This document shows positions 34,901 through 51,158 of a stretch of DNA of 64,000 nt, piece by piece. Location: assembly GCA_964427875.1 (NCBI GenBank), contig CAYRVX010000003.1, forward strand, positions 46,910 to 110,909. The letters are read 5' to 3'. A model generated the notes under the pieces. The model saw only the letters and a list, made by a program, of their open reading frames with translations. It had not been told where the DNA came from and ran no database searches. The stretch comes from an uncultured Planctomycetaceae bacterium (GTDB taxonomy: Bacteria > Planctomycetota > Phycisphaerae > SM23-33). How positions within the stretch are numbered: the first letter of the stretch is position 1; each line of letters opens with the position of its first letter. The position numbers were made by a program, and so were the translations under genes.

Positions 34901-36149
34901 GGCCAAGGGAGAAGTCAAGGAGCTTCAGCGAATCCTGCGATCGAAAGACGGGAGGCTAGCGCAACTCGGCTTGTTAGACTCGGCCTCCTTGCGCACTCCC
35001 GCACGCCGGCCGGACCTCAGGGCCGTCACGAAGACGTACGACGTTCGCGACTTGGTCTTCGGCGGGGGCGAAGCCGGCCGGCCGAGCGCGGGGGCAGGTG
35101 ACGACAAGCCCCGGGAGAAGGTGGCCGAGGACCTGGTCAGGACGATCCGCGGGGCCCTGGGCAGGGAAGTCGTCCTCGGCGACGCTGGTATCCAGATCTC
35201 CAACGGCAGGCTTGTCGTGAGCGCGACCGGCGGTGGCCAGAAGCTCGCGGCCGACCTGTTCACGAGGCTTCGGGACATCCGCGGGCCGCAGGTCGAGGTG
35301 GGCGGCAACATCGCCCAGCAGAGGGCGGCCGGACTCGTCCGGGCCCAACGCGACGTCAACGGCGACGGTATCGACGCGCCGGTGGCGGCCGCGTACCGCC
35401 CGAAGCAGCTCGCCGAGCAGCGGGAGTTCCAGGAGTTCCTGAGGCGAAACTACGATTGGGAGGTCGAGGCCCGACGGGCGGACGGCGGCTGGAAGTATGG
35501 CCGGTCCATGTCGAGCTATCTGCCGGCCCTGGACAGCTCGGGGCAGGCCCGGCGGTCGAGGGATCCGGCCAAGGTCACGCACGAGATAGCGGGCAAGTTG
35601 CTGATGAATGTGGGCCAGAAAGTGGCGGTCAACAGCACGAACATCTCTCTGGGTTCCGCGGCCGCCAACGCGTTGGGCATCCACTTTGCCGAGGGCCGCA
35701 ACGACATCCGCTACGCCGTCGTGGACGAGGCCCAGTTGCGGACGCTGCGCGAGATGGAGGCCCGGCGGCCGGGCGAGGGCAGGCCGGTCGCCGCCAACCC
35801 GCGGTTCCAGGAGACCATCGTCGGCACCGACGCGCTGCTGGCCAGCGGGCAGGTCGCCAACGTCACCTTCGCCGGCGACCGCGGCAACACGATCGACATC
35901 TACAGCAACCCGATCGCCCTGACGCACGAGAAGTACGTTCTGATCGACAACCACGACTACCTCACGGCCGTGCAGACCGGCCAGATGCAGCACTGGACCC
36001 AGCGGGCCAAGCCCCTCCGGTTCGCGGAGGTCCCTCAGGACATCGAGGTGCCCCGCGTGGGACGGCTGGTGAAGCTCGAGAAGACACTGATCAAACCGGC
36101 GGACGCACTGACGATCCGCGCCGAGTACACCTGGACTGGAAAGGAGTAG
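31905..36149 (+). CDS. Giant (1414 aa) secreted protein: N-terminal unknown beta-rich domains (paralogous to the next gene), Pro-rich linker, TPR-like helical region and a secretin-N-like (type II/III secretion 'short') domain
   Basis: Signal MRRIAVICAGAMLGSWALASAA. A YEIRNRSRQFLRLHLP...LLPLVRS...FPVQIV block shared with the 36154 gene. TPR-like RNYYRAGRDYYERGDYDKAAISLENTLRMAP. A secretin-N motif VTITADETANALVLTAPPGQRDKIVELLQQLD. No secretin beta-barrel C-domain seen. Confidence 0.6.
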   Translation: MRRIAVICAGAMLGSWALASAAERPGRDDVVRALLKRSRLLEDVRFTVPGSLYREYLRIASVGEAMFPAPVASIAGNGRYHLALDAAGRPALVATVALRVFKPRRCRNLPVLTAEWAWEKVAVNGAPASLAARKGWLRFTPRKAGRYVVSGQIGLSKGRADGGKVSFGIPRTVRTSLRFDSPGRWRVAVSGSPHRLLGQAPGGTHGELAVTPRERIEVEYTRPVELPPRPPRYELRGATAWNLDAGRQQIAARLRVRILGGRTDRLILQLPASARRVTITGPDVREAQVSPAGAAIFLRGTIAGQTRLTVGYELPLGAGSIQRLGRPELADGRWSGGTLAVTNTAGASEILPHAVRGLREIHPEDLPAEARGMLAGKCVLAYQITSRFFSAAVDVVDLGEFALRESIADLAHYRLLLRPDGSVLCKVDYEIRNRSRQFLRLHLPRGARVLVARVNDKPRPLTPLLDEPGAHLLPLVRSQASVKGLVSFPVQIVVLMRGKALRREGLAAVPLPRIDLPIAYGWCELHVPRDMAVDRWAGPMQHVERYSSETAVASLTYGRAELAEGYKLEDRPTVEAVPEGQPQRRPKRPPPPIALAKPPELKPTRPTEEPARPFGPATQPAATEILATKVTVPEGGTLILGGQVMLSRNYYRAGRDYYERGDYDKAAISLENTLRMAPKSAEAANAARLLANIKAVRGKLAAKSRQEKALTRQVKKEISGLNVKLEQQQRELIEQAGEAVRGGRRDEAAAGYQAAVSLGEQLIARGADEREQSVRLRDAKEELDRLQKQKQARATQLRTRYEVLKTAGQYGEALKIGKALQEVYEDKGEQQRLRGELEELAATTVRDKARHGATMAVQAATEVFTLEHAEARSVARVLSEMFAGRGQRGSAARSSRGPSTGRDQRVTITADETANALVLTAPPGQRDKIVELLQQLDAADSDANTERITAEGTSGFLPAAPRNIPALKLHASELREQKKHADALAVAGHVLRMAPADDWAKGEVKELQRILRSKDGRLAQLGLLDSASLRTPARRPDLRAVTKTYDVRDLVFGGGEAGRPSAGAGDDKPREKVAEDLVRTIRGALGREVVLGDAGIQISNGRLVVSATGGGQKLAADLFTRLRDIRGPQVEVGGNIAQQRAAGLVRAQRDVNGDGIDAPVAAAYRPKQLAEQREFQEFLRRNYDWEVEARRADGGWKYGRSMSSYLPALDSSGQARRSRDPAKVTHEIAGKLLMNVGQKVAVNSTNISLGSAAANALGIHFAEGRNDIRYAVVDEAQLRTLREMEARRPGEGRPVAANPRFQETIVGTDALLASGQVANVTFAGDRGNTIDIYSNPIALTHEKYVLIDNHDYLTAVQTGQMQHWTQRAKPLRFAEVPQDIEVPRVGRLVKLEKTLIKPADALTIRAEYTWTGKE

Positions 36150-36153
36150 AACG

Positions 36154-38154
36154 ATGAAACGAACGGTAGTGGCGGTAGCGGCTGTCCTGATCGCCGCGGG
36201 GGCCTGCGGGCCCGCGCTCGCCGAGGCGCCGAAGCTCGGCGAGGGCAAGGGGCAGGTCACGTTGAGCTGGGACGAGTTCGTGAGGATCACCGGCTACGAC
36301 CCCGCGAAGAAGGGCTCACAGGTGCTCACCATCCCCTGGGCGCAGGTGGAGGACCTCACCGGGCTGAAGGTGGACGGCGCCATGAAGGGCGCCACCGTGG
36401 ACCTCAAATGGGGCGAGTTCCGCGCCCTGCTCGAGTGGTCGATCAAGCGGAAGGACGAAGTGCCTCCGCCGGCCGACTACATCGTCACCTCCAGCCGGTA
36501 CACCGGCAGCCTCTCCGATGACGGCGCCGCCTTCAAGCTCGCCGCGAAGATCAACATCCTCCGCAAGAAGGGCTGGAAGAAGGTCCCCATCCTCCCGGTC
36601 ACCGTCGCCCTGACCAAGACCGAGCTTCCCCAGGGGGTCTTCCTCAACGCCACGGGGACGAACTACGAGCTGCTCACCGACCAGTCGGGACCCATCGACG
36701 TGAGCATCGAGTTCTCCGTGGCCGTCAACAAGAGCGCCGGCATCAACCAGGTTGGCTTCAAGCGAGTATTGGCCGGCTCCAGCGTGCTGGACCTGACCAT
36801 CGCGCGCGAAGAGGTGGACGTGAAGGTGGCCGACTCGCAGTCGCTGGTGAGCAAGACCGTGAACAAGCAGACGCAGGTGATCGCGGCGGTGCCGTCGAAT
36901 GCGGCCGTCGCCATCTCGTGGGAACGCGCGCTGCCCAAGGTGGCGGCCGCGCCGACGAAGCTCTACGCCGAGGTCGGCACGCTCGTGGCCGTGGCCGAGG
37001 GAATGCTCCTCTGCCAGGAGGTGGTCAACTACAACATCCTTCACACGGCGGTGCGCGAGTTGAACCTCCAGGTGCCCGCGGGCGCCAGCGTCCTGACGGC
37101 AAGCGGCTCGAACTTGCAGGACTGGCGCGTGGACAATGACGGCAAGCTCCAGGTGGTGCTCAAGGCCGAGGTCATCGGCAGCTACACGCTGCGGATCACC
37201 TACGAGCAGGCGAGCAAGGCGGGGGCCGAGACGCCCGTGATCCACCCGGTCGGCGTCGAGAGGCAGCGCGGGTACGTCGGCGTGGTGGCCGTCGCCAACG
37301 TGGAGATCGCCGCCGGAAAGGTGGACGCCGCCACCGCCATCGACGTGCGCCAACTGCCCGCCGACATCGTCTCCATGACCAATCAGCCGATCCTGCTGGC
37401 CTTCCGCTACCTGGGCGAGCAGTTCAAGATCCCGCTGACCATCAAGAAGCACGCGGAGGTCGGCGTCCTCGTGACGATCGTCGACAGCGGCGTCTTCACG
37501 GCCATGCAGCTCGCCGACGGGCGGAGGATCACCAAGGTCATCTACTCCGTCCGCAACAACCGGAACCAGTTCCTTCGGCTGAAGATGCCCGAGGCCTCGG
37601 AGATCTGGTCGGTCTCGGTCAGCGGCAACACGGTCTCCCCGGCCAAGGACGAGGCCGGCAACGTCCTGGTGCCCCTGGTGCGGAGCTCGGGCGGCGCCCA
37701 GGAGCTGGCGGCCTTCCCCGTCGAGATCGTCTACGTGGAGACGCCCAAGGCCCAGGTGCCCGAGCGAGGCCAGATCCACGTCGAGCTGCCCGCCTGTAGC
37801 GTTCCCGTCGTGCACGTGATGTACAGCTACTACGCGCCGGCGGAGGGCAAGTACACGGTCGGCTGGGGCGCGAGCGGCTTCTCCGGGCCGCTTCAGGTGG
37901 TCGAGGAGTTCACATCGCTGGCAACCGGCGCCGGCCGGCAGATCGTCCGCCTCGACGCCACCAAGCAGGCCAAGCAGATGCAGAAGGCCTTCGACGCCCG
38001 CGTGGACGCCAAGGCGAAGGCCGCAGGGGCCACGCCTATCCGCGTCCGCCTGCCCATCAACGGCAAGCTGTTCAAGCTGGAGAAGATCCTCGTCCTGCCG
38101 AACGACAGGCTGTACTTCGACCTCCAGTACAGGGACTGGAAGGTCCCGAAATAG
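36154..38154 (+). CDS. Secreted 666-aa protein, paralogue of the N-terminal ~550 aa of the preceding giant protein (unnamed domain family)
   Basis: Signal MKRTVVAVAAVLIAAGACGPALA. It shares the YSVRNNRNQFLRLKMP...VLVPLVRS...FPVEIVYVE block and upstream beta-strand pattern with the 31905 gene. It starts 5 bp after the 31905 gene's stop. Confidence 0.55.
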   Translation: MKRTVVAVAAVLIAAGACGPALAEAPKLGEGKGQVTLSWDEFVRITGYDPAKKGSQVLTIPWAQVEDLTGLKVDGAMKGATVDLKWGEFRALLEWSIKRKDEVPPPADYIVTSSRYTGSLSDDGAAFKLAAKINILRKKGWKKVPILPVTVALTKTELPQGVFLNATGTNYELLTDQSGPIDVSIEFSVAVNKSAGINQVGFKRVLAGSSVLDLTIAREEVDVKVADSQSLVSKTVNKQTQVIAAVPSNAAVAISWERALPKVAAAPTKLYAEVGTLVAVAEGMLLCQEVVNYNILHTAVRELNLQVPAGASVLTASGSNLQDWRVDNDGKLQVVLKAEVIGSYTLRITYEQASKAGAETPVIHPVGVERQRGYVGVVAVANVEIAAGKVDAATAIDVRQLPADIVSMTNQPILLAFRYLGEQFKIPLTIKKHAEVGVLVTIVDSGVFTAMQLADGRRITKVIYSVRNNRNQFLRLKMPEASEIWSVSVSGNTVSPAKDEAGNVLVPLVRSSGGAQELAAFPVEIVYVETPKAQVPERGQIHVELPACSVPVVHVMYSYYAPAEGKYTVGWGASGFSGPLQVVEEFTSLATGAGRQIVRLDATKQAKQMQKAFDARVDAKAKAAGATPIRVRLPINGKLFKLEKILVLPNDRLYFDLQYRDWKVPK

Positions 38155-38453
38155 GGCATGGTTCAAACATGCGCAGCCGGTAGCCGAAGCGGCCAGGGCC
38201 TTGGCACATTTGTGAGCCCAAGATCCGAAGGTCGTTGCCGGCTGCCGGCTGCCGGCTGCGCTGGTCTCGTGGCGACCGGTCCGTTACCGCCGAGCCGACT
38301 GCAACCAAACACTGACCCCTGCTGAACCAACCCCGAATCACCCCCGGCAAAATCTTGCGCCCGCCCTCGTAAATGCCTATTTCACAGGTGTTTATAGACG
38401 CAATCGCCCAAAATGGCTTTGTTTCGTAAAAAGACTTATGCCGGACCATTCGC

Positions 38454-38498
38454 AGCCACAAAGGTCACAAAGGTCACAAAGGTCACAGAGGTCACGGG
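38454..38498 (+). repeat. Tandem 9-mer (aggtcacaa) x4-5
   Basis: gccacaaaggtcacaaaggtcacaaaggtcacagaggtcacgg. An inverted partial copy aagtgaccg lies at 38511-38519. Confidence 0.8.
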
Positions 38499-38542
38499 GT
38501 AGATAACTCAAAGTGACCGATTCGCCAGCTTCCCGGGAGGTG

Positions 38543-38732
38543 CTCGTTGACTCGTGAATTCGTTAACTCGTTGATTCGTCAAGAACTCCGCCCTGGCCAC
38601 TCGGCGGATTCGTTGCACGACCCATGGCAGCCGGCACAGCTTCTCAGTTGCCGAGCCAGCAAAGCAAAGCCCAACATCTCTTCGGGCAATATCTTTCCAG
38701 TTAACGAGTTAACGAATTAACGGATCAACGGG
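38543..38732 (+). repeat. Pair of ~28-bp inverted repeats (cgttgactcgtgaattcgttaactcgtt / aacgagttaacgaattaacggatcaacg) bracketing ~130 bp: a MITE-like or protein-binding element
   Basis: Arm 1 at 38543-38572. Arm 2 at 38703-38732, which is the reverse complement with 2-3 mismatches. The arms are built from cgtt(a/g)a(c/t)tcgtt sub-repeats. Confidence 0.6.
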
Positions 38733-39080
38733 CAACCCGTAAGCCAATCAGGATCGGTCAGTTTGAGTAGATAAGATATCGAAATGGCGTGCTTTTGCAA
38801 ACGCGCAACGGACAGAGTGTTCTCTCACGGCCCCGAGCGTTTCTGTCGTAACCGCCTGCAAAATCATAACCTTTGTGTTCTTTGTGCCCTCTGTGGCGAA
38901 CAATCCGCGTTTGGCTTCGTTTCGCGTTTTTCTTCTGATCCGCCGCCTTCCTTTTCCTTGTGATCACGATCCCCCCGTAGCAGGCATATACATCTCGCAG
39001 CCCTTTTTGCACAACGAAAATCGCCAGATTGCAGAAAAACTTCCGGCCGCGCCCGCCGGCAAGGGCGGGCGTAGGCTGAA

Positions 39081-39233
39081 GGTCGTAGGTCATAGGTCGT
39101 AGGTCGTAGGGCAGACCGTGGGACCGGATACCGTGGGGCCGTGGGACCGGATACCGTCGGACCGCAAGACCGTGCCACCGGATACCGTCAGACCGGCAAT
39201 CGTCCTCGTCGTCGTCCTCGTCCTCGTCCTCGG
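39081..39233 (+). repeat. Consecutive micro/minisatellite blocks: (ggtcgtag)x4, a ~23-bp unit (ccgtgggaccggataccgt) x3, and (cgtcct)x5
   Basis: Read directly: ggtcgtaggtcataggtcgtaggtcgtagg; gaccgtgggaccggataccgtggggccgtgggaccggataccgtcgg...ccgtgccaccggataccgt; cgtcctcgtcgtcgtcctcgtcctcgtcctcgg. Confidence 0.8.
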
Positions 39234-39246
39234 CCGTCTCTTCTCG

Positions 39247-39450
39247 GGGTTCCGAGTTCCGGCCTCCTCGGGGGCAGGCGGCCGTGCCGGCCGCCGTTAA
39301 ACGCTCCGCGCCTCCCTGCCCGGTAGGCAGCCTCCGGGTTCCGAGTTCCGAGTTCCGACCTCTTCGGGGCCAGGCGGCCGTGCCGGCCGCCGTTAAACGC
39401 TCCGCGCTCCGGGCTCCGGGTTCCGAGTTCCGCCTTCCCGGTTCCCGCTT
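39247..39450 (+). repeat. ~96-bp-period direct repeat (2 full + 1 partial copies), each with the perfect palindrome ggcggccg-tgc-cggccgcc and (gttccga)n
   Basis: Copies at 39247-39311 and 39337-39407 (gttccgagttccg.cctc.tcgggg.caggcggccgtgccggccgccgttaaacgctccgcgc). A partial copy sits at 39416-39450. Confidence 0.75.
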
Positions 39451-39454
39451 GCGA

Positions 39455-39500
39455 CTTCGTCATTCGTCATTCGTCATTCATCATTGATCATTCGGCATTG
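39455..39500 (+). repeat. Tandem heptamer (tcgtcat) x3 with degenerate copies (tcatcat, tgatcat, tcggcat)
   Basis: cttcgtcattcgtcattcgtcattcatcattgatcattcggcattg. Confidence 0.8.
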
Positions 39501-39739
39501 CTTCTCCCTTGCTTCCCCCGCCCCGCGCGGTATCCTGAATGAGACAAAAGGGCCTGCCGCTCACCGGGCGGCCGTCCGGGCAAAGCGGCAGGAACCAACG
39601 GGGCGGTGAGTGTGTCCCGCTCGCCATCATGAAAGCGTTATCTCGTTCATCCGTTCACTCGTTCACTCGCGGTCGCGGAGACGCCCGCGCAGGGCCGACG
39701 CGCTGATTCCGGGCACTCCTCGACCGTCGCCCCCGACTG

Positions 39740-42244
39740 CTAGGTGCTGATCTCGGTGACTAGGCCGACTTGCTGGGCAATGGGCGTATACAGATCCACC
39801 TCGGTTGCCGGGGTGCTGATGGTGATGATCAGCGCGTATCGCGTCTGCTTCTCGACGAAGCCCAAATGCTTGCGCTCGCGCCACCAACCGGTGACGGGGG
39901 ACACGGCTACCTGCCCGCACTGCGCAACGTAGCTGGCAGGCGCTGTCCACCAGTCCGAATGAATCGAGCCACGTGTCTGGAGCTTCGCACCGATCGTCCA
40001 GTCGATCGGATCGCTTGTAGACGGTCGGGCTTGCTCTTCTTCCCATTCCTGGCTGCTGATTCGCTGACGGAATTGCCTCTCCGTTTCGATCGGCCCTCGG
40101 AGTTTGAATCGCAGCCCATGAGAGGCATAACGGAACTTCCTGCGCCATCCCCGACGGCCGGGACTCGGCTCGACGAAATAGGAAAGCGTAATCCGAACAG
40201 TCACGTCTTGCTGGTGAAGGGCCTCCAGGGCAGCCCTCGGCCACGGCAACGAGTGGAGGACAAAGTGATTCGTCTTTGCCTTGGTGCCATCCAGCTTGAA
40301 TGGCTGAATCGCCCCCTGATGGATAAGCGACACGCAGTTCTCGACGGTATACCTGGCGCGCTCAAGGTTCGGTACGCCGTATCCGAAACAACGCAGGCGA
40401 GCATGACGTTCGTCCTGCCGGTTGCCGCGAACCTGACGCAGCATCTCGCCGGTCCACTCAGCCGAGTGGACGAGGAGGCCCCGAACCGTTTCCGGCCAGA
40501 GCTCGGGATAGTCGGCCATCAGGATGGCCGCAAGCCGGGCGGCCTGGGCAGTCGCGGCGCTCGTGTCGCCAGTCCATGTCAGCAGCCGACCCGTCGGGTC
40601 GAGTGAAGTGGTGAGCAGTGATAGATCATCGCAGCCGTCGATCTGACCCCCTGGTGATTGGGCGTAGTTGCCGCCTTCCATAACGATGTCCGGCTTCAGT
40701 GGCCATCTTCGGTCGTCCCAAGCGCGAGACGTGCGACTGGTCGGACAGAGGCCGCCTAGCGGCGCCACCGCCTGGTAGCCGTCGAAACCTATTGAGCTTA
40801 TCCGCACACGCTCCGTGAAGGCACCTACCGTCAAGGCATTCCAGCTCTGGCCGGGGTCCTCGATGCCGTTGGATGAGAGGTTGGTCTCGGGGTACGTATA
40901 CGAGGGATCCGTTGTGACATCACGGATGTTCCCGGCGGCGACCACGTACAGCCGCTGATGGCCGTCACGCTGACCCGCTGCGTGCTGGTCAATGGCCCCG
41001 GACCAGGAAGTCGGGCAACCGTGATCTCTACCCATATCAGCGGCTGTGATCGGAAGGCAGGCGACACGGCTGCGCTTGGGAGCTTGGGTCTCGGCCATGG
41101 CCAAGCTGGCTTGAGTGACGTAGCCCCATGAGTCCTCGGGGTGTGGCCGGGCGCTGTGGAGCATCCGAACGGACTCCAGGCGGTGCAGGAGTGCATGTGC
41201 CTCGGTGTTCCTAAGCAGGTCGGCAAGATGGTCGCCGAAGATGGCCAGGCCAGCGATCTCCGTACCATGGGCCTCGGCATGGTCGACCACCGGCCACGTC
41301 GGGTCCAAAGCCTGCGCGTCCTCGTCCGCAATCAACGGGCGCAATAGCGGGTGGGACGTATGCACGCCATGGTCGAGCAAACACACAGCCGGTGCGTCGG
41401 CGTGCGGCAAGACCAATCGGCCGACCAAGTCCTGGACGAACTCCCGCTGTTCCCGGGCTTGCAGGCGAAGGAACTCCGTGGGCACTTCCTTCGCCCGTCG
41501 TAATTCTGCGAGTCGATCAAGTAGCGGAACGAAGACTCGCGTCCATTGCGCGGGTGTTCCGAAGGCAAGGAAAACAAGGCGTTCAGGGAACGGAATGACG
41601 TGCTGACTCAGTTGCAGCTGAGTGTCCGCCGTTGCAGCTACAAACTCGGCGAAAGCCGAATCTGGGTCTTCATCTGCCGCAACGCGAATCCAGACCTCCC
41701 ACCAGATGGCTTGGTTCTCAGTAGCTGGGTATAGGCTCTCGTCGTCGGTCCAGAATGATGCGAGAACTGGGAAACGAATGCCGCTGATACCGGTGACCAG
41801 GTCTTCGTTCTTTGGGCGGCCGGATGGATAGCCTTCCGTTGGTGCCGTATTCTCGGTTTCGTACCGCTCGATCTTGCGAACGTACTTCTCGAGTTGCCCG
41901 TCGGGGACGTAGACCGTCGCGTGCAGACGGCCGTCATGGACTCGTGTGGAAAGCACTTCCACTTCAGGGCGGAGCTTTCTGTTCTCAAGGCTTTCGATCT
42001 TGAGGTCATACTTCCGCACGTCTTCGCCAACGACCTCAAGACACAGATCGCGTATGACATGGCCCGACTCACCGGCAAGGGATTTCGCATCTTCCACGGC
42101 CTTCTCTACGTCACCGATCAACTTCCGAGCATGGGCGCGTCGGTCACGCGGAGGCATTCTGAATTCACCTCCGCCCCCGGGCGGCCTGGTGTAGTTACGG
42201 GCCTGTCCGGGCTTCGTGATGAGAACATGTCGATGTCGCGCCAT
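39740..42244 (-). CDS. Subtilisin-like S8 serine peptidase, large (834 aa), IetS-like
   Basis: Catalytic-residue contexts LLDHGV (Asp), HGTEIAGLAI (His), VVAAGN (Asn) and GDTSAATAQAARLAAI (Ser). The gene has lower GC and different codon usage than its surroundings. Confidence 0.75.
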   Translation of the reverse strand: MARHRHVLITKPGQARNYTRPPGGGGEFRMPPRDRRAHARKLIGDVEKAVEDAKSLAGESGHVIRDLCLEVVGEDVRKYDLKIESLENRKLRPEVEVLSTRVHDGRLHATVYVPDGQLEKYVRKIERYETENTAPTEGYPSGRPKNEDLVTGISGIRFPVLASFWTDDESLYPATENQAIWWEVWIRVAADEDPDSAFAEFVAATADTQLQLSQHVIPFPERLVFLAFGTPAQWTRVFVPLLDRLAELRRAKEVPTEFLRLQAREQREFVQDLVGRLVLPHADAPAVCLLDHGVHTSHPLLRPLIADEDAQALDPTWPVVDHAEAHGTEIAGLAIFGDHLADLLRNTEAHALLHRLESVRMLHSARPHPEDSWGYVTQASLAMAETQAPKRSRVACLPITAADMGRDHGCPTSWSGAIDQHAAGQRDGHQRLYVVAAGNIRDVTTDPSYTYPETNLSSNGIEDPGQSWNALTVGAFTERVRISSIGFDGYQAVAPLGGLCPTSRTSRAWDDRRWPLKPDIVMEGGNYAQSPGGQIDGCDDLSLLTTSLDPTGRLLTWTGDTSAATAQAARLAAILMADYPELWPETVRGLLVHSAEWTGEMLRQVRGNRQDERHARLRCFGYGVPNLERARYTVENCVSLIHQGAIQPFKLDGTKAKTNHFVLHSLPWPRAALEALHQQDVTVRITLSYFVEPSPGRRGWRRKFRYASHGLRFKLRGPIETERQFRQRISSQEWEEEQARPSTSDPIDWTIGAKLQTRGSIHSDWWTAPASYVAQCGQVAVSPVTGWWRERKHLGFVEKQTRYALIITISTPATEVDLYTPIAQQVGLVTEIST

Positions 42245-42262
42245 GGGAACTCCCCGATCGGT

Positions 42263-43252
42263 TCACCTTGGTTTCCCACCGGAACGCCCACGTTGGGATA
42301 GAGCACGCTTCAGTTCGCTGGTCAGTATCTTCCGGCGTCCGTCGAGAACCGCATCTTTTGCCGCCTCTTCGCATGCCTTCACGATATCGGCGTGGGGCAT
42401 GCCTTTCGCCGTGTCCAGGATCGACCGCCAGCCAAGACGCCGAATGTCGAAGCTGCTGAGTCGGTTCTCGACGAGCCTCCGGGCCATGGTCGCAGTGGGC
42501 AATCCGTAGCGCACCGTGTCATCGAAGCGCCGGAACAGCGCCGAGTCGAGCGAGCCCTCGAGGTTGCTGGCCGCGATGATGAGCCCCATCGAGTCATCTT
42601 GTTCGAGGAAGATGAGGAATGAGTTGAGGACACGCCGGATCTCCCCGACATCATGTCCGCCATGACGATGAGCCCCGATAGCGTCGAACTCGTCGAACAG
42701 ATACACGGCGCGAGACTGCTTCATGGCGTCGAAGACAAGGCGGAGTTTGGCCGCTGTTTCGCCCATGAACTTCGTGATGAGTGTATGAAACTGAACCGTC
42801 AGGAGCGGCAAGCGCAGCTCACCGGCCAACGCGGCAGCCGTCATGGACTTCCCGCAGCCAGGCGCCCCAAGCAACAACAGCTTCCGGCGGGGAACAAGGC
42901 CGTGCGTGTGCAGACGGTCGACTTGGCGGTACTCGACCAGGACACGGTCGAGGCGCCGCTTCAGTTCGACCGTCAGAACCATGTCTGCCAGATGCGTATT
43001 CGGGAATGTGGCGGCGAAGAGACCGCTTAGCTCCCCCGTCGGCTGAGCAATTGGAACGGATTTCAATGGCGCTGGCTGCGCGGCTTGCATGCGACGAGCT
43101 TCGTCCACAAGGTGCCGAAGCTCTTCGGCGAGCTTCTTCTTCCCAGTTCTGGCCGCGTGTGCGGCGATCTGAGAGGCAACGGACAAGAACCGCTCCGGAT
43201 CTCGCTCCGTGTAGCTCTCGATCAGTGCTTTAACTTGTTGGGCTGTGGCCAT
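42263..43252 (-). CDS. AAA+ ATPase (classic AAA family), IetA-like
   Basis: Walker A LLLLGAPGCGKS, Walker B VYLFDEFDA, and sensor/arginine-finger region IIAASN...LDSALFRRFD. It ends 19 nt upstream of the S8 peptidase start, giving a two-gene operon. Confidence 0.8.
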   Translation of the reverse strand: MATAQQVKALIESYTERDPERFLSVASQIAAHAARTGKKKLAEELRHLVDEARRMQAAQPAPLKSVPIAQPTGELSGLFAATFPNTHLADMVLTVELKRRLDRVLVEYRQVDRLHTHGLVPRRKLLLLGAPGCGKSMTAAALAGELRLPLLTVQFHTLITKFMGETAAKLRLVFDAMKQSRAVYLFDEFDAIGAHRHGGHDVGEIRRVLNSFLIFLEQDDSMGLIIAASNLEGSLDSALFRRFDDTVRYGLPTATMARRLVENRLSSFDIRRLGWRSILDTAKGMPHADIVKACEEAAKDAVLDGRRKILTSELKRALSQRGRSGGKPR

Positions 43253-43591
43253 GTGGGCGCCTCAATCGACACGGCCGACCTATGCTCAGTCCTGGCGTAG
43301 CCATTGGCTTCGCCAAACTAGACGACCAGAGCAACTGCTCGCCCTTCGACCGGCCATCCGCTTTCCTTGTTGTTGCTTCGGCCTGACGGACCCGCTCATT
43401 CGCTTCGCGGCCTCGGCAGGAAACTGCCTTAGCCAGGTTTCCCGGATGAAGTTCCGCCGCAATCATCGGGAACCTCTTTGATGATTGTATCTTGTCCCCA
43501 AGCCCTGGCAAGGCTGTTTCCGGTTCTCGTAAGCCCTCATTAGCGTCCCGTTGGGCCGCCATTCCGTTGGGAACGACCTTCGGCAGGCCCT

Positions 43592-44320
43592 TTGGGCCAG
43601 GTGGGGAGCTTCCTGGACCTGGCCACATGCGAGGGCCTCGATTCCGCAATCTTCTCGGATCCCGCCTTCCTGCCGACCTACCTGGCCCGCGCCTTCGAGT
43701 ACGCCCACGACCCCGGGACGGAAGACGCCCAGCGATGGCCCCACTTCGTCGAGACGGTATTAGCTCGGATCAAGGCGCTCCGCAGTCTGTACGCCGACGT
43801 CGAGCCGCCGCCGCGGCTCGTCGAGGCCGTCGAGGCGATCACCGCCGAGCTCATCGAGTACTTGGCCCGGCACCCGCGGGCCCTCTACCGGATCAGGCCC
43901 CGCCAGTTCGAGGAGCTGATCGCCGAAATCCTCGCAAGCTACGGCTGGCAGGTGCAGCTCACACCTGCCAGCAAGGACGGCGGCTACGATCTTCTTGCCA
44001 TCTCGAAGGACGCCTCCGATCTGGAGACCTCCTGGATCGTCGAGTGCAAGAAGTATGGGCCCGAGAACAAGGTCGGCGTGGAGATTGCCCGGGCGCTATA
44101 CGGCGTCAAGACGGATCTCCGCGTCGCCAGTGCCCTCCTCGCGACGACGTCGCACTTCACCAGAGGCGTGAAGGCCTACAAGGCCTCGCATTACGATCTG
44201 GAGCTTCGTGATTACGAGGGCATCCTGGAGTGGATCAACACCTACCGTCCCAACCCCGACGGCAGGCTCTACATCAAGGACAACCGCCTGATCCTCCCGG
44301 GCGACGAACGCCCGGCGTAG
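43592..44320 (+). CDS. Mrr-catalytic-domain restriction-endonuclease-like protein
   Basis: The PRQFEELIAEILASYGWQVQLTPASKDGGYDLLAISKD...WIVECKKYGPENKVGVEIARALYG pattern is the Mrr_cat (PD-(D/E)xK) signature. The N-terminal ~100 aa are of unknown function. Confidence 0.65.
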   Translation: MGQVGSFLDLATCEGLDSAIFSDPAFLPTYLARAFEYAHDPGTEDAQRWPHFVETVLARIKALRSLYADVEPPPRLVEAVEAITAELIEYLARHPRALYRIRPRQFEELIAEILASYGWQVQLTPASKDGGYDLLAISKDASDLETSWIVECKKYGPENKVGVEIARALYGVKTDLRVASALLATTSHFTRGVKAYKASHYDLELRDYEGILEWINTYRPNPDGRLYIKDNRLILPGDERPA

Positions 44321-44396
44321 CGCGGTCGGGCTTGGTGACAGAAAGAACAACGATCCGCACAAGAGGTTAATGGAACGCGGGGGGGCGTGGGGTATT

Positions 44397-44514
44397 TGTT
44401 TAGCGGGCCGGCTTGCCGGCCACTCCTCGGCCGGCAGGGCCGAGGCCCTTGCGTCGTCCGGCGGAAGACACGGCCGGCAACCTGTCTGCCGACAGGCAGA
44501 GCCGGGCCGCTAAA
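44397..44514 (+). other. GC-rich ~120-nt element with long-range complementary arms and nested hairpins (candidate structured RNA / attenuator)
   Basis: gtttagcgg (44397-44405) pairs with ccgctaaac (44506-44514). Internal hairpins include gccggc-ttg-ccggc and tctgcc-gaca-ggcaga. It lies between the Mrr-like gene and the exbB/exbD operon. Confidence 0.25.
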
Positions 44515-44684
44515 CCATTGAACGATGCGCTCAGTTTAGCTCGCATGCGGATCGTTGATAACATTGCCCTGCTCCCGGAACCGGGCTTCGGATGAGACGT
44601 TCCTACTATGTGCTGTTCTTGAGGTGAGCTCCTTCGTTACAATCCCGGGCAGATGAGGCGGCCGGGATCAGGGAGGACCGCAGT

Positions 44685-45506
44685 ATGCGGGAACGGAAAT
44701 GGCAGTTGAGGACGGTTTGGGCCGCGTTGCTGGTGTTGCTGGCTGCCGCGGCGCCGGTGACGGTCGCGCAGGAGGGCGAGCCGCCCGCGGCGCCGACGAA
44801 GAGGGCGGCCGAAGGCGCAGCCGACGAGGAGGTCGAAGGCCTCGCCATGGACGCCCCGCAGACGCTCTGGGAGTCGCTGGAGGCGCAGTGGAGCACCCTC
44901 TACAAGCTCGGCGGGCGGACGATGATCGCCCTGGCGGCCGCCTCGATCATCGGCTTTGCGTCCCTGCTGGAGCGGGCGATCAGCCTGCTGCTGGCCTCCT
45001 TCAGCATAAGGGGCCCCGTCAGGACCGCCGGGGCCATGTGGAAACAGGAGAGGTTTGGTGACCTCGAGAGGCTGGTCGGGAGCAAGTCGGGCATTACGGC
45101 CCGTCTGATCGACTTCATCGTGCGGCACCGCGAGTATCACATTGCGGACGTCTCGGCCGCCGTGGGCGATCTCGCCAGCCGGTATATCAAGCGGCACATT
45201 CGCCGGAACTACTGGCTGCTCGTCGTGGCGGGGATCAGCCCGATGCTGGGTCTGCTCGGCACGGTCCTCGGGATGATCGAGGCCTTCGAGAAGGTCAACA
45301 TCGCCGGGTCGATGGGCAGCGCGAAGTATCTCTCGGGCGCGATCTCCAAGGCGCTGATCACGACGGCCACCGGACTGGTCATCGGGATCCCCGCGCTGTT
45401 TTTCTATCACGTTTACAAGTTCCTGACCGGCGTGCTGGCCGACACGCTGGAGGGCAGGGCCAATGAAATGGTCACCGGCTGGCTCATGAGGAAGGAGGCC
45501 GCCTGA
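44685..45506 (+). CDS. MotA/TolQ/ExbB-family proton-channel protein
   Basis: Signal plus three TM helices. A C-terminal conserved block GLLGTVLGMIEAF...ALITTATGLVIGIPALFFY. Confidence 0.85.
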   Translation: MRERKWQLRTVWAALLVLLAAAAPVTVAQEGEPPAAPTKRAAEGAADEEVEGLAMDAPQTLWESLEAQWSTLYKLGGRTMIALAAASIIGFASLLERAISLLLASFSIRGPVRTAGAMWKQERFGDLERLVGSKSGITARLIDFIVRHREYHIADVSAAVGDLASRYIKRHIRRNYWLLVVAGISPMLGLLGTVLGMIEAFEKVNIAGSMGSAKYLSGAISKALITTATGLVIGIPALFFYHVYKFLTGVLADTLEGRANEMVTGWLMRKEAA

Positions 45507-45934
45507 TGAGAATCCGACTGACCGGCGAGGAGGCCGAAGGCGAAGCCAGGATCCAGATGGCCCCGCTGATCGACTGCGTCTTCCTGCTTCTGAGCTTCTT
45601 CCTGGTCACTGCGGCCCTGCGGGAGATCCACGTGGAGCTGCCGCTGGATCTGCCCGATGCGGGTGCCTACGTGAAGGCCAAGGCGGTGGACAACACCATC
45701 GTCATCTCCGTGACGAAGGACGGGACGATCCACCTGGCCGACACGCCCGTGAACACGCGAACGCTCCTGTCGAGGCTGCGGGCCCACGCCAAGACGCCCA
45801 ACGCCCGCGTCCGCGTGGACGGCGACCGGGCCTGCGCGTTCAAGCACATCGCCTACGTGCTGGACCTGTGCCAGTTCGAGGGCCTCAACAACGTGGGGGT
45901 CCGCACGAAGGCCCCCCCCCGGCCGGGGAGGTGA
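45506..45934 (+). CDS. exbD: ExbD/TolR-family biopolymer transport protein
   Basis: INMAPLIDCVFLLLSFFLV N-terminal anchor. A periplasmic domain with ...VRVDGDRACAFKHIAYVLDLC... Its ATG overlaps the upstream stop. Confidence 0.85.
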   Translation: MRIRLTGEEAEGEARIQMAPLIDCVFLLLSFFLVTAALREIHVELPLDLPDAGAYVKAKAVDNTIVISVTKDGTIHLADTPVNTRTLLSRLRAHAKTPNARVRVDGDRACAFKHIAYVLDLCQFEGLNNVGVRTKAPPRPGR

Positions 45935-45943
45935 CAGAGACCC

Positions 45944-47293
45944 ATGCCCGAACGGCGAAGACAACTCGAGGGCTGGCGCTGGTGGGCGGTCGCGGCCATG
46001 GTGGCGATCGCCGTCTCCCTCGTGCTTCACGCGGTCATAGTCGTTGCGATCAACCGCATTCCCTGGCTGCACGATATGATCTTCCCGGAAGAGGTCGCCG
46101 TCCAGCGGACGTACTCCCCGGAGCAGATCCAGGAGACGGCCGACGACATCCGCAGGGACATCAGCAGGAAGCTGCGGGAGAAGACCGGCGAGGTGCAGGA
46201 GATCCTCGCGACGGTGGCGGACATCCGCGACCGGAAGGTGAAGGAGCACGCCGAGGGGGGCTCGGCCTCGCTGGTGACCGACACGGAGAAAGAGGCCCTG
46301 GAGCTGGCCGTACCGAGACAGGAGACGCTCTACGAGGTCTTCCGGGCGTCTCAGTTCCTCGAGCGCGGGTGCCACGACGCCTACGAGGGCTGGCGTGCCA
46401 TCACGCTGACCGTGCAGCAGAAGATCCCCCTGGAGCGCGCCAGGGAAGTCACCAAGGTCTCCCGCGTCACACGGCGGGCCGGAAAGCAGGAGCTCCTCGA
46501 GGGCCCGATCCGCAGCATGGGGGAGTTCAGGAAGTTCCGCAGCGAGGTCATCTACGTGATGACCGAGGTCGATGCCATCCTCGTCGGCGCCAAGCGAATA
46601 CGCGACCTCGTGCTGGATATCGACGCGCCGGAGCTCGGCAGCGGCCAGACCATCGCCATCCAGAACTCCGGCACGCTCTACCAGGGCAGCGGAGGCGGGT
46701 TGGAATGGGGCGCAACCGTCGGCCCGCCGCTGCTGGCCGATGAGATCTTCGCCAGCCGGGCCAGCAGCCTCTCCAGAGCGAACTTCCAACCCAAGCCCGG
46801 CCGGAAGGTCACCTCCAAGGGCAGCCCGATGGACTGGATGTACATCGACCGATGGTACTGCATCGGGCCGTTCCCCAACCCCGGCCGGAAGAACCTCGAC
46901 GAGAAGTTCCCGCCCGAGTCCGTGGTGGACCTCGACATGAGATACGAGGGCAAATACGGCGTCCTGCGCTGGAGGCCCCTTCGGGCGCCCAGTCTCTGTG
47001 TGAACCCTTACGACGTGGACAAGTACGCGATCTACTACCTGTGGACCGAGATCTGGTCCGAGGAGGAGAAGGACTACTGGTTCGCCCTGGGCAGCGACGA
47101 CTACGGCAAGCTTTGGGTCAACGGAGAGCTCATCTGGGCCAGCGGCAAGACGCCGCACCACTGGATCCCCGACCGCGGCTACCGCAAGGTGAAGCTGAGA
47201 AAAGGCCCGAACCAGATCCTGTTCAAGATAGAGAACGCCGGCGGCACGATGGGCTTCTCCGTGGTCCTCCGCGTCGCGCCCATAGGCACGTGA
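45944..47293 (+). CDS. Hypothetical membrane-anchored periplasmic protein in the exbB-exbD cluster (possible TonB-role/auxiliary protein)
   Basis: TM helix WWAVAAMVAIAVSLVLHAVIVV. No TonB C-terminal signature recognisable. 449 aa. Confidence 0.45.
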   Translation: MPERRRQLEGWRWWAVAAMVAIAVSLVLHAVIVVAINRIPWLHDMIFPEEVAVQRTYSPEQIQETADDIRRDISRKLREKTGEVQEILATVADIRDRKVKEHAEGGSASLVTDTEKEALELAVPRQETLYEVFRASQFLERGCHDAYEGWRAITLTVQQKIPLERAREVTKVSRVTRRAGKQELLEGPIRSMGEFRKFRSEVIYVMTEVDAILVGAKRIRDLVLDIDAPELGSGQTIAIQNSGTLYQGSGGGLEWGATVGPPLLADEIFASRASSLSRANFQPKPGRKVTSKGSPMDWMYIDRWYCIGPFPNPGRKNLDEKFPPESVVDLDMRYEGKYGVLRWRPLRAPSLCVNPYDVDKYAIYYLWTEIWSEEEKDYWFALGSDDYGKLWVNGELIWASGKTPHHWIPDRGYRKVKLRKGPNQILFKIENAGGTMGFSVVLRVAPIGT

Positions 47294-47302
47294 GACTGTC
47301 CG

Positions 47303-47713
47303 ATGAGCGATCTGACACGAACAGCACTGGCGATCGACGTTGAGCTCCTGAAGAAGTTCGATCGGTGGATGGCCGCCCACGGGTACACCAATCGCTCGGA
47401 GGCCGTCCGCGACCTGATCCGTGCTGCGCTGGTCGAGGCCCAGTGGCGAAATCCCAGGGCCAAGGTCGTGGCCGTGTTGAGCGTGATCTACGACCATGCC
47501 TCCCATGCGCTCGCCCAGGAGCTGACGACGATCCAGCACAGGGACCATCACGCCGTGCTGTGCAGCCAGCACGTGCATCTGGACGACCACCTGTGCCTTG
47601 AGGCCATCGTGATGCAGGGGACGGCGCGTCAGCTTCGCCGGCTGGCCGATACGATCATCGCGACCCGCGGGGTCATGGCAGGCAAGCTCACGCTGCTCAG
47701 CCGGAACGTCTGA
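47303..47713 (+). CDS. nikR: Nickel-responsive regulator NikR (RHH + ACT-like Ni-binding domain)
   Basis: An RHH N-terminus (TNRSEAVRDLIRAAL). Ni-site residues in IYDHASH...QHRDHHAVLCSQHVHLDDHLCLEAIVMQG are collinear with E. coli NikR (HxH...C). Confidence 0.85.
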   Translation: MSDLTRTALAIDVELLKKFDRWMAAHGYTNRSEAVRDLIRAALVEAQWRNPRAKVVAVLSVIYDHASHALAQELTTIQHRDHHAVLCSQHVHLDDHLCLEAIVMQGTARQLRRLADTIIATRGVMAGKLTLLSRNV

Positions 47714-47751: not shown

Positions 47752-48525
47752 CTATGGCTCGCGGATGCGCTGGATCTTGAACAGCGCCGGCCAGACGCCC
47801 GTGAGCTGCTGCCGCGGATACGTTTGGGCGGGGTAATTCCTGTTGAGCGGCTGTAGACGGGTCGTCTGCTCTTCGTCCTGGTAGACCCGCTTGAAGGTCG
47901 TGCCCTCGTCCCCTTCGAGGCGGACAAAGCAGTCGTCGCCGCTGCGCGCCACGGCGTTGGGGGAGAAGACCACGATGTCGCCCTCGCGGTATTCCGGCTC
48001 CATGGAGTCGCCCACGACGCGGGCGGCGAACGCCTGCGGATCGTGCATGTCCGGGCAGCGGATGTACTCGTCCGCCATGCCGGGAGGGTAGTCCAGATCG
48101 GTGAAGTGGTGGGGGTAGCCGGCCGCTACGCTGTTGATCACGGGAACGACCACGCCGGCCCAGAGATCATCGCGGCTCTCGGGGACAAAGTCGGTATCGG
48201 GCGTCGCCCCCTCCTCGTCCGCCTTGCCGCCGCGGAGCTCCCTGATGACCGCGCGAAGCCTGTCCATTTCCGCCCTGAATCTCTCGTATCGTTCTCGGAC
48301 GTCCGTCGGGGTCCGCGCCAGATGGGCGATCCTGACCAACTCGCCCGGACGAAAGGTCAGGGCCCTTTCCAGCGATCGGAGAATGCCGTCGGAAGGGGGG
48401 TTCTTCGCCTTGCCCGTCTCGATGTTCGACAGATACGGCTTGGATATCCCAACCTGCGACGCGACCACCTCCTGTGTCATACCCAGTTCTTCGCGGCGAG
48501 CTCGCACAATAGAACCCAGACTCAT
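47752..48525 (-). CDS. XRE-family HTH + S24 (LexA/CI-type) self-cleaving repressor
   Basis: HTH LGMTQEVVASQVGISKPYLSNIETGK. S24 serine motif GDSMEP and lysine ...TFKRVY. Confidence 0.8.
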   Translation of the reverse strand: MSLGSIVRARREELGMTQEVVASQVGISKPYLSNIETGKAKNPPSDGILRSLERALTFRPGELVRIAHLARTPTDVRERYERFRAEMDRLRAVIRELRGGKADEEGATPDTDFVPESRDDLWAGVVVPVINSVAAGYPHHFTDLDYPPGMADEYIRCPDMHDPQAFAARVVGDSMEPEYREGDIVVFSPNAVARSGDDCFVRLEGDEGTTFKRVYQDEEQTTRLQPLNRNYPAQTYPRQQLTGVWPALFKIQRIREP

Positions 48526-48759
48526 GGCCGATCTCCTGAATCCGTCAAAATCTACGCTTCTGTACCATTATCCACTGTTTTCGGCACAAAGGCAAGGCTT
48601 TCTGAATAAACAGGGAAAAATATTTTTCTGAAAAAACATTGACATTGCAGGTTTCGTGGCTAAAATACATATTGAGGCGGGGTGCGTCTCCAGCGGCGGC
48701 GTTGCTCAAATCATTGTGTTTCTCGCACGGCTTCCGTGCGCGAGGGTCAGGCCTGTTCG

Positions 48760-49065
48760 TCAGGAACCGGATTCATCGGGCATGTAGGTGAAGCGTATGC
48801 GGAACAGCCGTCGTCCCTCGCGCTTCTCCGGAGGGTAGAGCTCGTTGAGGGCGCAAGCAAGGCCCGCCAGGCTCTCGAAGCCGTCCGCGCGGGCGTCCTC
48901 ATCGTTCAGTTCGCCGACCTCCACGGGCTGGGCGGCGTCAATGCGGACCTTTCCCAGCCCGGGAATGGTGTGCACGGTGCCGGCCCGGAGGTGACACCAT
49001 CGCCAGAACCGCAGCGTGGTGGTCTTGACTCCAGAGCGTATGCCCTTGAAGAACCTTTTTTTCAT
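48760..49065 (-). CDS. ASCH (PUA-like) domain protein
   Basis: KKRFFKGIRSGVKTTTLRFW...AGTVHTIPGLGKVRIDAAQPVEVGELNDEDARADGF matches the ASCH beta-barrel pattern. The start is taken at MKKRFF. Confidence 0.6.
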   Translation of the reverse strand: MKKRFFKGIRSGVKTTTLRFWRWCHLRAGTVHTIPGLGKVRIDAAQPVEVGELNDEDARADGFESLAGLACALNELYPPEKREGRRLFRIRFTYMPDESGS

Positions 49066-49078
49066 CAGGAGCATTGAG

Positions 49079-50536: not shown

Positions 50537-51158
50537 AAGGCTGGCCCTTGCCGACCTGATCGGGCGCAAAGGCCGCGCAACCGTTCTGCCGGCCCGCGCC
50601 AGAAAGGCGCTGGCCGAGCACATCTCTCGCCACGGCTGCTACCCCCCCGTGATCGTCCGCCCGCATCCTCGTCGCGCGGGCAAGTTCGAGATACTCGACG
50701 GCCACCATCGCGCGGAGATCCTGCGAGGTCTTGGCGAGAAGACGGCTCGCTGTGAGGTCTGGCCGGTGGATTCGGCCGAGGCGGGGGTCGTGGCCGCGAC
50801 GCTGAACCGCCTCCGGGGCCGCCAGGACGTCAAACGGCGTGCCGGCCAGGTCGGGCGCCTCGTGCGCCGGTTTGGCCCAGAGGGCGCGGCGGCCAGGCTC
50901 GGCATCACGCCCACGGCCCTGCGCCAGCAGCTCGCCCCCGCCGACACGCCTGGGCACCATGAGCCTCCGGCGGCCCTGGACCTCCAGGCCGTCGTGTTCC
51001 ACCTGTCCGCCGAGGAAGTACGGCACCTGCGACAGGCGCTGGACAATGCCGGCCGCCGCACGCTCGGCCGCGCCAAGGCGCTCATGAAGGTGATCGGGCC
51101 GGGCCCGATGCAGGCCGGCGACCTCTCCAGTGCCCGACGGGAAGACGCCGCAGAGTGA
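50502..51158 (+). CDS. ParB-like nuclease (ParB/Srx) domain protein
   Basis: FEILDGHHRAEILRGLG is the ParB N-terminal-domain core motif. It overlaps the preceding gene by ~35 nt. Start uncertain (ORF begins 50475). Confidence 0.6.
   Translation: MSPRRHPQAVSRRLALADLIGRKGRATVLPARARKALAEHISRHGCYPPVIVRPHPRRAGKFEILDGHHRAEILRGLGEKTARCEVWPVDSAEAGVVAATLNRLRGRQDVKRRAGQVGRLVRRFGPEGAAARLGITPTALRQQLAPADTPGHHEPPAALDLQAVVFHLSAEEVRHLRQALDNAGRRTLGRAKALMKVIGPGPMQAGDLSSARREDAAE

Follow-up and report, generated by a model that had tools for sequence, protein, structure and literature searches.

A chromosomal IetAS-family AAA+ ATPase and subtilase gene pair carried by an insertion at a variable site in a planctomycete

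Introduction

IetAS systems pair an AAA+ ATPase (IetA) with a subtilisin-like protease of the S8 family (IetS). According to the founding study (Yamamoto et al. 2009), as cited in PMC5006074 and PMC13069673, IetS is the toxin and IetA the antitoxin of a pair that stabilizes the Ti plasmid pTiC58. Two chromosomal relatives, SgiAT (S026/S025) of Salmonella Genomic Island 1 (SGI1) and TA132/133 of mycoplasma, also behave as toxin/antitoxin pairs (PMC5006074, PMC8562856), and IetS homologues are toxic when present alone and are neutralized by an active ATPase (PMC5006074, PMC8562856, PMC13069673). IetAS homologues protect against phage (10.1101/2022.08.27.505566, 10.1101/2022.08.21.504612, PMC13069673), and this protection has been attributed to abortive infection, with yosG of phage SPbeta being a sufficient trigger (10.1101/2022.08.27.505566). 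The protease active site is needed for defence, and an ietA mutant could not be built (PMC13069673). Here, we describe an ietAS pair in a 64,000-nt stretch of DNA (the window) from an uncultured Planctomycetaceae bacterium (contig CAYRVX010000003.1, positions 46,910 to 110,909), and we compare the pair, its insertion site, and its neighbourhood with those of the described systems.

Family assignment of the gene pair

An earlier sequence-only reading of this DNA had proposed an IetAS-like operon of two open reading frames (ORFs), and both ORFs were found at exactly the positions that it gave, on the minus strand. The gene pair consists of the following features:

42263..43252, minus strand: ietA, a 329-amino-acid (aa) classical-clade AAA+ ATPase, putative antitoxin/regulator (Pfam AAA, 1.5e-24)
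39740..42244, minus strand: ietS, an 834-aa cytoplasmic S8 subtilase, putative toxin/effector (Peptidase_S8, 1.3e-48, residues 284-623)
42245..42262, minus strand: ietA-ietS spacer of 18 nt with a GGGGAG ribosome-binding motif, from direct reading of the sequence

Profile searches matched the IetA product to the PADLOC IetA model PDLC02196 with an E-value of 3e-66 (residues 2-320 on profile positions 2-320 of 374) and the IetS product to the PADLOC IetS model PDLC02198 with an E-value of 5e-26 (residues 278-826). IetA was 54% identical to the Agrobacterium Ti-plasmid IetA over its full length (residues 1-321), and IetS was 40% identical to the Ti-plasmid IetS over residues 6-826; the Ti-plasmid pair used for this comparison shows 95% DNA identity to its counterpart on A. 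fabrum plasmids of pTiC58 size (214,233 bp). When the founding Ti pair was run as a control, it scored like the window pair on every IetA and IetS model, with 239 bits for the founder versus 222 for the window on the IetA models (founder E-value of 2.5e-71 on PADLOC IetA) and 85 versus 89 bits on the IetS models. Another close pair was found on a plasmid of the planctomycete Paludisphaera (57% identity for IetA and 41% for IetS), where it lies beside ParDE, an integrase, and UmuDC. Judged by these matches, the IetAS-type assignment of the sequence-only reading stands, and the window pair is classified as a new member of the known IetAS family.

The pTiC58 pair, which is y4kL/y4kK-like on rhizobial plasmids, shares with the window pair its gene order, its protein sizes (328/836 aa versus 329/834 aa), and its three-part protease architecture, but it is carried by a plasmid, whereas the window pair is chromosomal and resides in a high-GC planctomycete. 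The anti-phage ietAS systems (Gao et al. 2020; homologues from B. cereus and E. coli) have the same two-component architecture, and their profiles gave the best defence matches of the window pair, which represents a divergent branch relative to them. SgiAT likewise combines an AAA antitoxin with a subtilase toxin on an integrated chromosomal element (PMC5006074); however, SGI1 is a defined mobilisable island with an integrase, whereas neither a mobility gene nor a tRNA target could be recognised in the window insert. The Mycoplasma TA132/133 genes likewise form a chromosomal AAA/S8 pair in which the antitoxin gene comes first, and deletion of the antitoxin alone is lethal (PMC8562856); their proteins are of 353 and 757 aa and come from a distant lineage. 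The ietHAS system (Liu-DS4) shares the IetA/IetS core but needs an added SNF2-type helicase, IetH (PMC13069673), and no SNF2-family helicase was present among the called neighbours of the window pair.

Operon layout and start of ietS

The two genes lie on the same strand with ietA upstream, and 18 nt separate the ietA stop codon from the ietS ATG. A Shine-Dalgarno-like GGGGAG lies 5 nt ahead of that ATG. The pair thus has the adjacency, co-orientation, and ATPase-then-protease order expected of IetAS, and its layout is that of a tight operon.

Public gene calls make ietS shorter, at 805 aa (NCBI/JGI) or 793 aa (a near-identical strain), with one public caller giving 834 aa. The shorter calls leave out a conserved N-terminus at 42158-42244 (codons 1-29). 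The 805- and 793-aa starts are judged too late and the true start is placed at 42244, giving 834 aa, because the alignments with homologues, among them the Ti-plasmid protein, begin at residues 1-6, M1 and H6 show almost no variation, the Shine-Dalgarno motif precedes this start, a second caller selects it, and residues 1-22 are structured in the model described below. No signal peptide or transmembrane segment was found in either the ietA or the ietS product.

Foreign composition and insertion at a variable site

The 3.5-kb ietAS span had a GC content of 0.613 compared with a window mean of 0.672, which places it in the lowest 1.3% of same-size segments. GC content at third codon positions (GC3) was 0.695 for ietS and 0.712 for ietA versus 0.79-0.95 in 12 independently called neighbours. 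The pair had been described as lying on a lower-GC island; this description holds for ietAS itself in both GC and GC3, but the low GC extends no further than ietAS and the flanking non-coding DNA.

To compare loci, we took the conserved gene for a 666-aa protein as the anchor and used a genome collection, which provided distant relatives, and a metagenome scan, which provided nine loci. For the genome-collection relatives L004 and L005, the distance was too great to follow synteny on the far side of the anchor, whereas the metagenome loci were informative. Locus L008, whose anchor gene is 73% identical, contains a gene for a 1414-aa protein, the 666-aa gene, approximately 320 bp, and then exbB, exbD, and the gene for a 449-aa protein (p449), with no ietS, ietA, or mrr. 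Since the same flanks are only about 320 bp apart in L008, the window carries a 6.5-kb insert, located between the 666-aa gene and exbB. The features of this region outside ietA and ietS are as follows:

38155..44684, no strand: insertion relative to the L008 empty site, 6.5 kb, with repeat-rich non-coding DNA, ietS, ietA, and an Mrr remnant
38155..39739, no strand: non-coding stretch of 1.6 kb downstream of ietS, with short tandem arrays and nested inverted repeats
43484..43511, minus strand: candidate sigma-70-like promoter, TTGCCA-16-TACAAT, approximately 230 nt upstream of ietA
43592..44320, plus strand: 5'-truncated gene for an Mrr-type nuclease, divergent from ietA (Mrr_cat PF04471, 2.3e-21, residues 99-215)

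DNA homology to ten relatives stops at the stop codon of the anchor gene (38154-38156), and a near-identical copy of the island (99.98%) was present in a second sample. The empty L008 site and the filled window site together provide the presence/absence polymorphism that the sequence-only reading had put forward as a check on its proposal.

The same position is occupied by different genes in other relatives. L005 carries a toxin-antitoxin (TA) pair of MntA (NTP_transf_2) and HepT there (1737-2371), and ORFs closely resembling this pair occupy the position in L009 (4546-5180) and L004 (3509-3847). After the 666-aa gene, L007 continues straight into nikR, L011 carries a GDSL lipase, and L013 carries a sigma-54 activator and a Fic protein. 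The slot after the 666-aa gene is a variable cargo hotspot, and ietAS is a horizontally acquired insert at that hotspot.

No tRNA was present in the 64-kb window, and no integrase or transposase was found among the called window genes; a tRNA- or integrase-mediated island was rejected on these results. Direct repeats at 39709-39726 and 44416-44433 (18 nt, 16/18 identical) bracket ietS, ietA, and mrr and were considered as attachment sites or a target duplication; they were rejected, as shuffled versions of the region contain approximately one pair of this kind by chance.

The 1.6-kb non-coding stretch contains 15 of the window's 25 tandem-repeat rows reported by Tandem Repeats Finder, with at least 10 different 6-9-nt arrays of 3-6 copies each and a 96-nt unit present in 2.1 copies that includes a GC hairpin. 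Its nested inverted partners include CACAAAGGT, in four copies, facing its own complement 385 nt away, and arms of the TCGTTAAC type separated by 130 nt. The stretch showed no Rfam or Pfam match, and a non-coding RNA was rejected on the empty Rfam search. Similar short tandem oligomers follow the 666-aa gene stop codon in L007, L004, and L008 and lie upstream of an mrr homologue in L021; such oligomers seem to be typical of intergenic DNA in this lineage.

The IetAS cassette at other loci

Eight further loci contain both genes complete (L002, L003, L015, L018, L019, L020, L025, and L026), and at all eight the AAA gene lies directly upstream of the S8 gene. Their surroundings differ from locus to locus and include housekeeping genes, HNH/EVE genes, ISL3, Mu, and IstB transposases, a type I restriction-modification (R-M) specificity subunit, and plasmids. 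In four low-GC hosts, the pair showed GC3 values of 0.29-0.33 versus 0.44-0.59 for its neighbours, so that every host examined shows an AT shift of the pair against its neighbours. Between the window and its two closest cassettes, L025 and L026 (74-77% DNA identity), homology is confined exactly to the interval between the start codon of ietA and the stop codon of ietS. These two loci share no flanks with the window beyond the two ORFs, and the edges of a mobile element could not be drawn from them. The accessory, mobile distribution expected of IetAS is seen here in the empty site of L008, the unrelated contexts, and GC3 values below those of the host in five hosts, and the pairing of a filled with an empty site shows the cassette acting as a mobile unit of two genes. 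In L025 (253-1738, 5711-9218), the cassette, which is 78% identical, lies between a ThiF-family protein and DUF7380/EMARD_N plus a type I R-M specificity subunit, a setting that looks like a real defence-island context.

This distribution bears on a housekeeping explanation, in which the two proteins form a proteasome-like quality-control machine of the host. Such a pair, conserved at this locus in all relatives, was the outcome that the sequence-only reading had named as speaking against its own proposal. The nearest non-Iet relatives of IetA are indeed PAN, FtsH, and Cdc48-type unfoldases, and the combination of an ATPase with a protease has a superficial likeness to chambered proteases. However, none of ten related contigs has the pair at the window locus, its composition marks it as foreign in five hosts, copies sit on plasmids and next to transposases, and its homologues act as toxin and antitoxin (PMC5006074, PMC8562856). 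The empty site, the variable contexts, and the composition effectively rule out a housekeeping pair, an explanation that we find scarcely credible.

The Mrr neighbour

The Mrr-type gene matched the PADLOC mREase_IV model (3.3e-13) and contains the Mrr_cat domain with the D...ExK catalytic motif (GGYD...ECK), but it has no ATG start. It had been described as following the operon; it is instead encoded on the plus strand, divergent from ietA, and is not co-transcribed with the pair. Its closest homologues (85%, 69%, and 68% identical) are proteins of 350-410 aa with N-terminal PF00805 pentapeptide repeats followed by Mrr_cat, and this N-terminal pentapeptide domain is missing from the window gene. 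Homology to the 85% identical protein, P0271, begins at approximately residue 113 of P0271 and at the DNA level runs from 43602 to 44315 in the window. An in-frame stop codon lies just upstream of the start of homology, and no pentapeptide remnant was detectable upstream of it. GC3 of the Mrr gene was 0.87, which is host-like.

A three-gene system, in which Mrr would work with IetA and IetS as the SNF2 helicase does in ietHAS, has to be weighed against these data. Mrr and ietA adjoin and have a 339-bp divergent intergenic region in common, Mrr and ietAS are both absent from the L008 empty site, and IetAS of E. coli co-localizes non-randomly with type III R-M systems (10.1101/2022.08.21.504612). 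By contrast, no Mrr gene was found next to IetAS at any of eight other loci, and the window gene is 5'-truncated, lacks the pentapeptide domain and an ATG start, and differs in GC3 from ietAS (0.87 versus 0.70). DNA homology among IetAS cassettes is limited to the two ORFs, and full-length pentapeptide-Mrr genes stand alone in other contexts. Mrr as an IetAS component or a co-acquired partner is rejected on the truncation, the GC3 value, and the absence elsewhere, and a three-gene system is accordingly very improbable. The window Mrr gene is best read from its sequence as a truncated bystander, and the arrival of the ietAS block may have truncated it.

PADLOC searches with nine further neighbours gave no defence match beyond generic ABC-ATPase similarity (mad3/mad8, for a 506-aa protein), and this result speaks against a wider defence island; the site is, all the same, a hotspot that holds TA cargo in relatives. 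The small defence island proposed by the sequence-only reading thus survives only in part: an Mrr nuclease is present beside the pair, but the gene is truncated and no other defence gene was found, and the island therefore amounts to one intact system and a nuclease remnant.

At two other loci, full-length pentapeptide-Mrr genes lie beside other effector-type genes: three pentapeptide-repeat-TIR proteins and a PemK toxin in L022 (9743-13240), and a PIN protein in L023. These modules of a pentapeptide repeat plus an effector could form a defence-type family.

Motifs of IetA

IetA contains Walker A lysine K135 (42848-42850), Walker B residues D187/E188 (42689-42694), pore loop 1 with the sequence K-F-M-G at residues 161-164 (42761-42772; K-[F/Y]-M-G in the alignment), sensor-1 residue N230, and arginines R241/R242 of the second region of homology. 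All of these elements were invariant in the homologue alignment. The solved structures closest to IetA were the classical-clade unfoldases NVL, NSF, p97 D2, Cdc48, and FtsH. Judged from its motifs, ietA is predicted to encode a complete and competent classical AAA+ unfoldase-type ATPase.

Domain architecture of IetS

The catalytic residues of IetS are D291 (41372-41374), H326 (41267-41269), and S562 (40559-40561), with N439 (40928-40930) as the oxyanion residue, and all four were invariant in 75 sequences. On this basis, ietS is predicted to encode a complete cytoplasmic subtilase with an intact active site and the fixed three-part architecture of its family:

41411..42244, minus strand: N-terminal region, residues 1-278, annotated as Y4kK_N (PF27160) on homologues
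40352..41410, minus strand: S8 catalytic core, residues 279-631 (Pfam residues 284-623; subtilase fold matches)
39743..40351, minus strand: C-terminal beta-rich domain, residues 632-834, specific to the IetS family

A sequence search of the PDB with IetS detected no relative, and fold searches were therefore performed. The AlphaFold model, built on 75 sequences, was confident, with a mean predicted local distance difference test (pLDDT) score of 85.9 and a predicted template modelling (pTM) score of 0.72. In addition to its conserved N-terminal tail, the N-terminal region has a long helix and ferredoxin-like alpha/beta subdomains in this model, and it may be propeptide- or prodomain-like. Residues 1-22 had a pLDDT of approximately 91 in the full-length model and were disordered (below 50) when the N-terminal domain was modelled alone, which suggests that the tail packs against the S8 or C-terminal domains. 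The basic loop at residues 694-705 (SPGRRGWRRKFRY) has conserved columns, yet its pLDDT is low. From the modelling, residues 1-22 and this loop are candidate regulatory elements.

The C-terminal beta domain, which is possibly P-domain-like, has approximately 1,388 representatives at 50% clustering, 421 of them with E<=1e-30, and in nearly all of these it forms the C-terminus of a protein of 810-850 aa. The fold alignment of IetS with KP-43 spans 367 residues and, by inference from the model, also covers the C-terminal beta domain. Tk-SP, KP-43, furin/kexin, and PCSK9 also have C-terminal beta domains, but these enzymes are secreted or pass through the secretory pathway and become active when the prodomain is cleaved, whereas IetS is predicted to be cytoplasmic. 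Compared with these proteases, IetS shows 11-20% identity, a much larger N-terminal region, and, by homology, control by an ATPase.

Function and proposed mechanism

We consider it probable that the window pair is a chromosomal IetAS module of the toxin-antitoxin or abortive-infection type, with Mrr as a bystander and the mechanism set out here. In the uninfected cell, hexameric IetA would spend ATP to hold IetS latent, probably by engaging and remodelling IetS through its pore loops, the unfoldase-latch step being an inference on our part. The handle or latch may be the conserved N-terminal tail of IetS together with the possibly prodomain-like region, or the flexible, conserved basic loop 694-705. 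This control would be broken by a phage product or when IetA is no longer supplied, and the freed IetS would then cleave essential cell proteins, so that growth would stop and the phage would fail.

Several observations weigh against this interpretation. The toxin, antitoxin, and phage-defence roles are transferred to the window pair by analogy from homologues, none of which is from a planctomycete, and as of 2026 the way in which IetA restrains IetS was described as unknown throughout the family (PMC13069673). A literature search found no structural or mechanistic paper on IetAS. The top NCBIfam hits of the window pair were IteA_antiphage (NF042959) and IteS_antiphage (NF042956), and both equivalog cut-offs were widely missed, with 189 versus 510 bits for IteA and 59.4 versus 900 bits for IteS. 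The founding Ti pair also falls below these cut-offs (199 and 41 bits), and the IteA and IteS antiphage models therefore cover a narrower branch; by sequence, the phage-tested ietAS systems appear to belong to a different branch from the window pair. Furthermore, the TTGCCA-16-TACAAT site was the only one returned by a promoter scan of 39300-44800 and was not significant, as shuffled sequences yield 0.9 +/- 1.0 sites.

The branch position also bears on a pure addiction module, that is, a selfish TA pair that acts solely to stabilize its carrier DNA, as first reported for pTiC58 and SGI1, and plays no part against phage in its host. The window pair is closest to the plasmid-stabilization founders (54%/40%), the close planctomycete plasmid copy sits beside ParDE and an integrase, the anti-phage equivalog cut-offs are missed, and the hotspot carries a classical TA pair in relatives. 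However, stabilization and anti-phage roles are not exclusive, and phage protection has been seen with IetAS homologues of several phyla (10.1101/2022.08.27.505566, 10.1101/2022.08.21.504612, PMC13069673). SgiAT expressed from its own promoter showed no post-segregational killing (PMC5006074), and a chromosomal copy without mobility genes has little to stabilize. We therefore regard a purely selfish role as unlikely and retain the chromosomal toxin-antitoxin or abortive-infection module as the preferred interpretation.

A more specific proposal makes IetS a cytoplasmic zymogen in which residues 1-22 and the possibly prodomain-like region dock on the catalytic or C-terminal domains and hold the protease latent, and IetA works the latch through its pore loops, and couples this with an integrase-free hotspot that swaps TA and defence cargo. 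The tail takes on a confident structure only together with the remainder of the protein. We hold the combined proposal to be quite doubtful. Swapping at the slot after the 666-aa gene would perhaps occur by recombination among short tandem-repeat arrays. If the zymogen latch were true, the planctomycete clade, with hundreds of diverse full-length sequences, would provide the first structural hypothesis for an AAA+ unfoldase antitoxin. In this respect, the IetS model offers targets for the control exerted by IetA, namely the N-terminal tail, the conserved basic loop 694-705, and the possibly prodomain-like N-terminal region.

Taken alone, the window pair matters little, given that a standard defence-finder run would call IetAS and that the family has well over 1,000 members. 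It does belong to a large IetAS clade near the founding plasmid pair that is widespread in Planctomycetota (Phycisphaerae, Sedimentisphaerales).

Neighbouring genes

On the anchor side of the insertion (31905-38154), the 1414-aa and 666-aa proteins have no family assignment and are distant paralogues of each other (reciprocal 25-28% in tblastn). The 666-aa protein starts with a signal-like N-terminus, and the two genes are neighbours in many relatives.

Further along the window, at 47752-51158, a gene for a 257-aa cI/LexA-like protein with an XRE-type helix-turn-helix and a Peptidase_S24 domain is followed by an ASCH-domain gene, which is divergent from an overlapping pair encoding the 506-aa ABC-like ATPase and a ParB_N-domain protein. 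The proteins of this region showed only generic ATPase matches against PADLOC.

Directly beyond the insertion, at 44685-47713, exbB and exbD are followed by the gene for p449, which matches no Pfam, NCBIfam, or PADLOC family, and then by a NikR-like regulator. L008 retains the exbB-exbD-p449 trio, but in L007 the trio does not lie between the 666-aa gene and nikR, and it may thus be variable as well.

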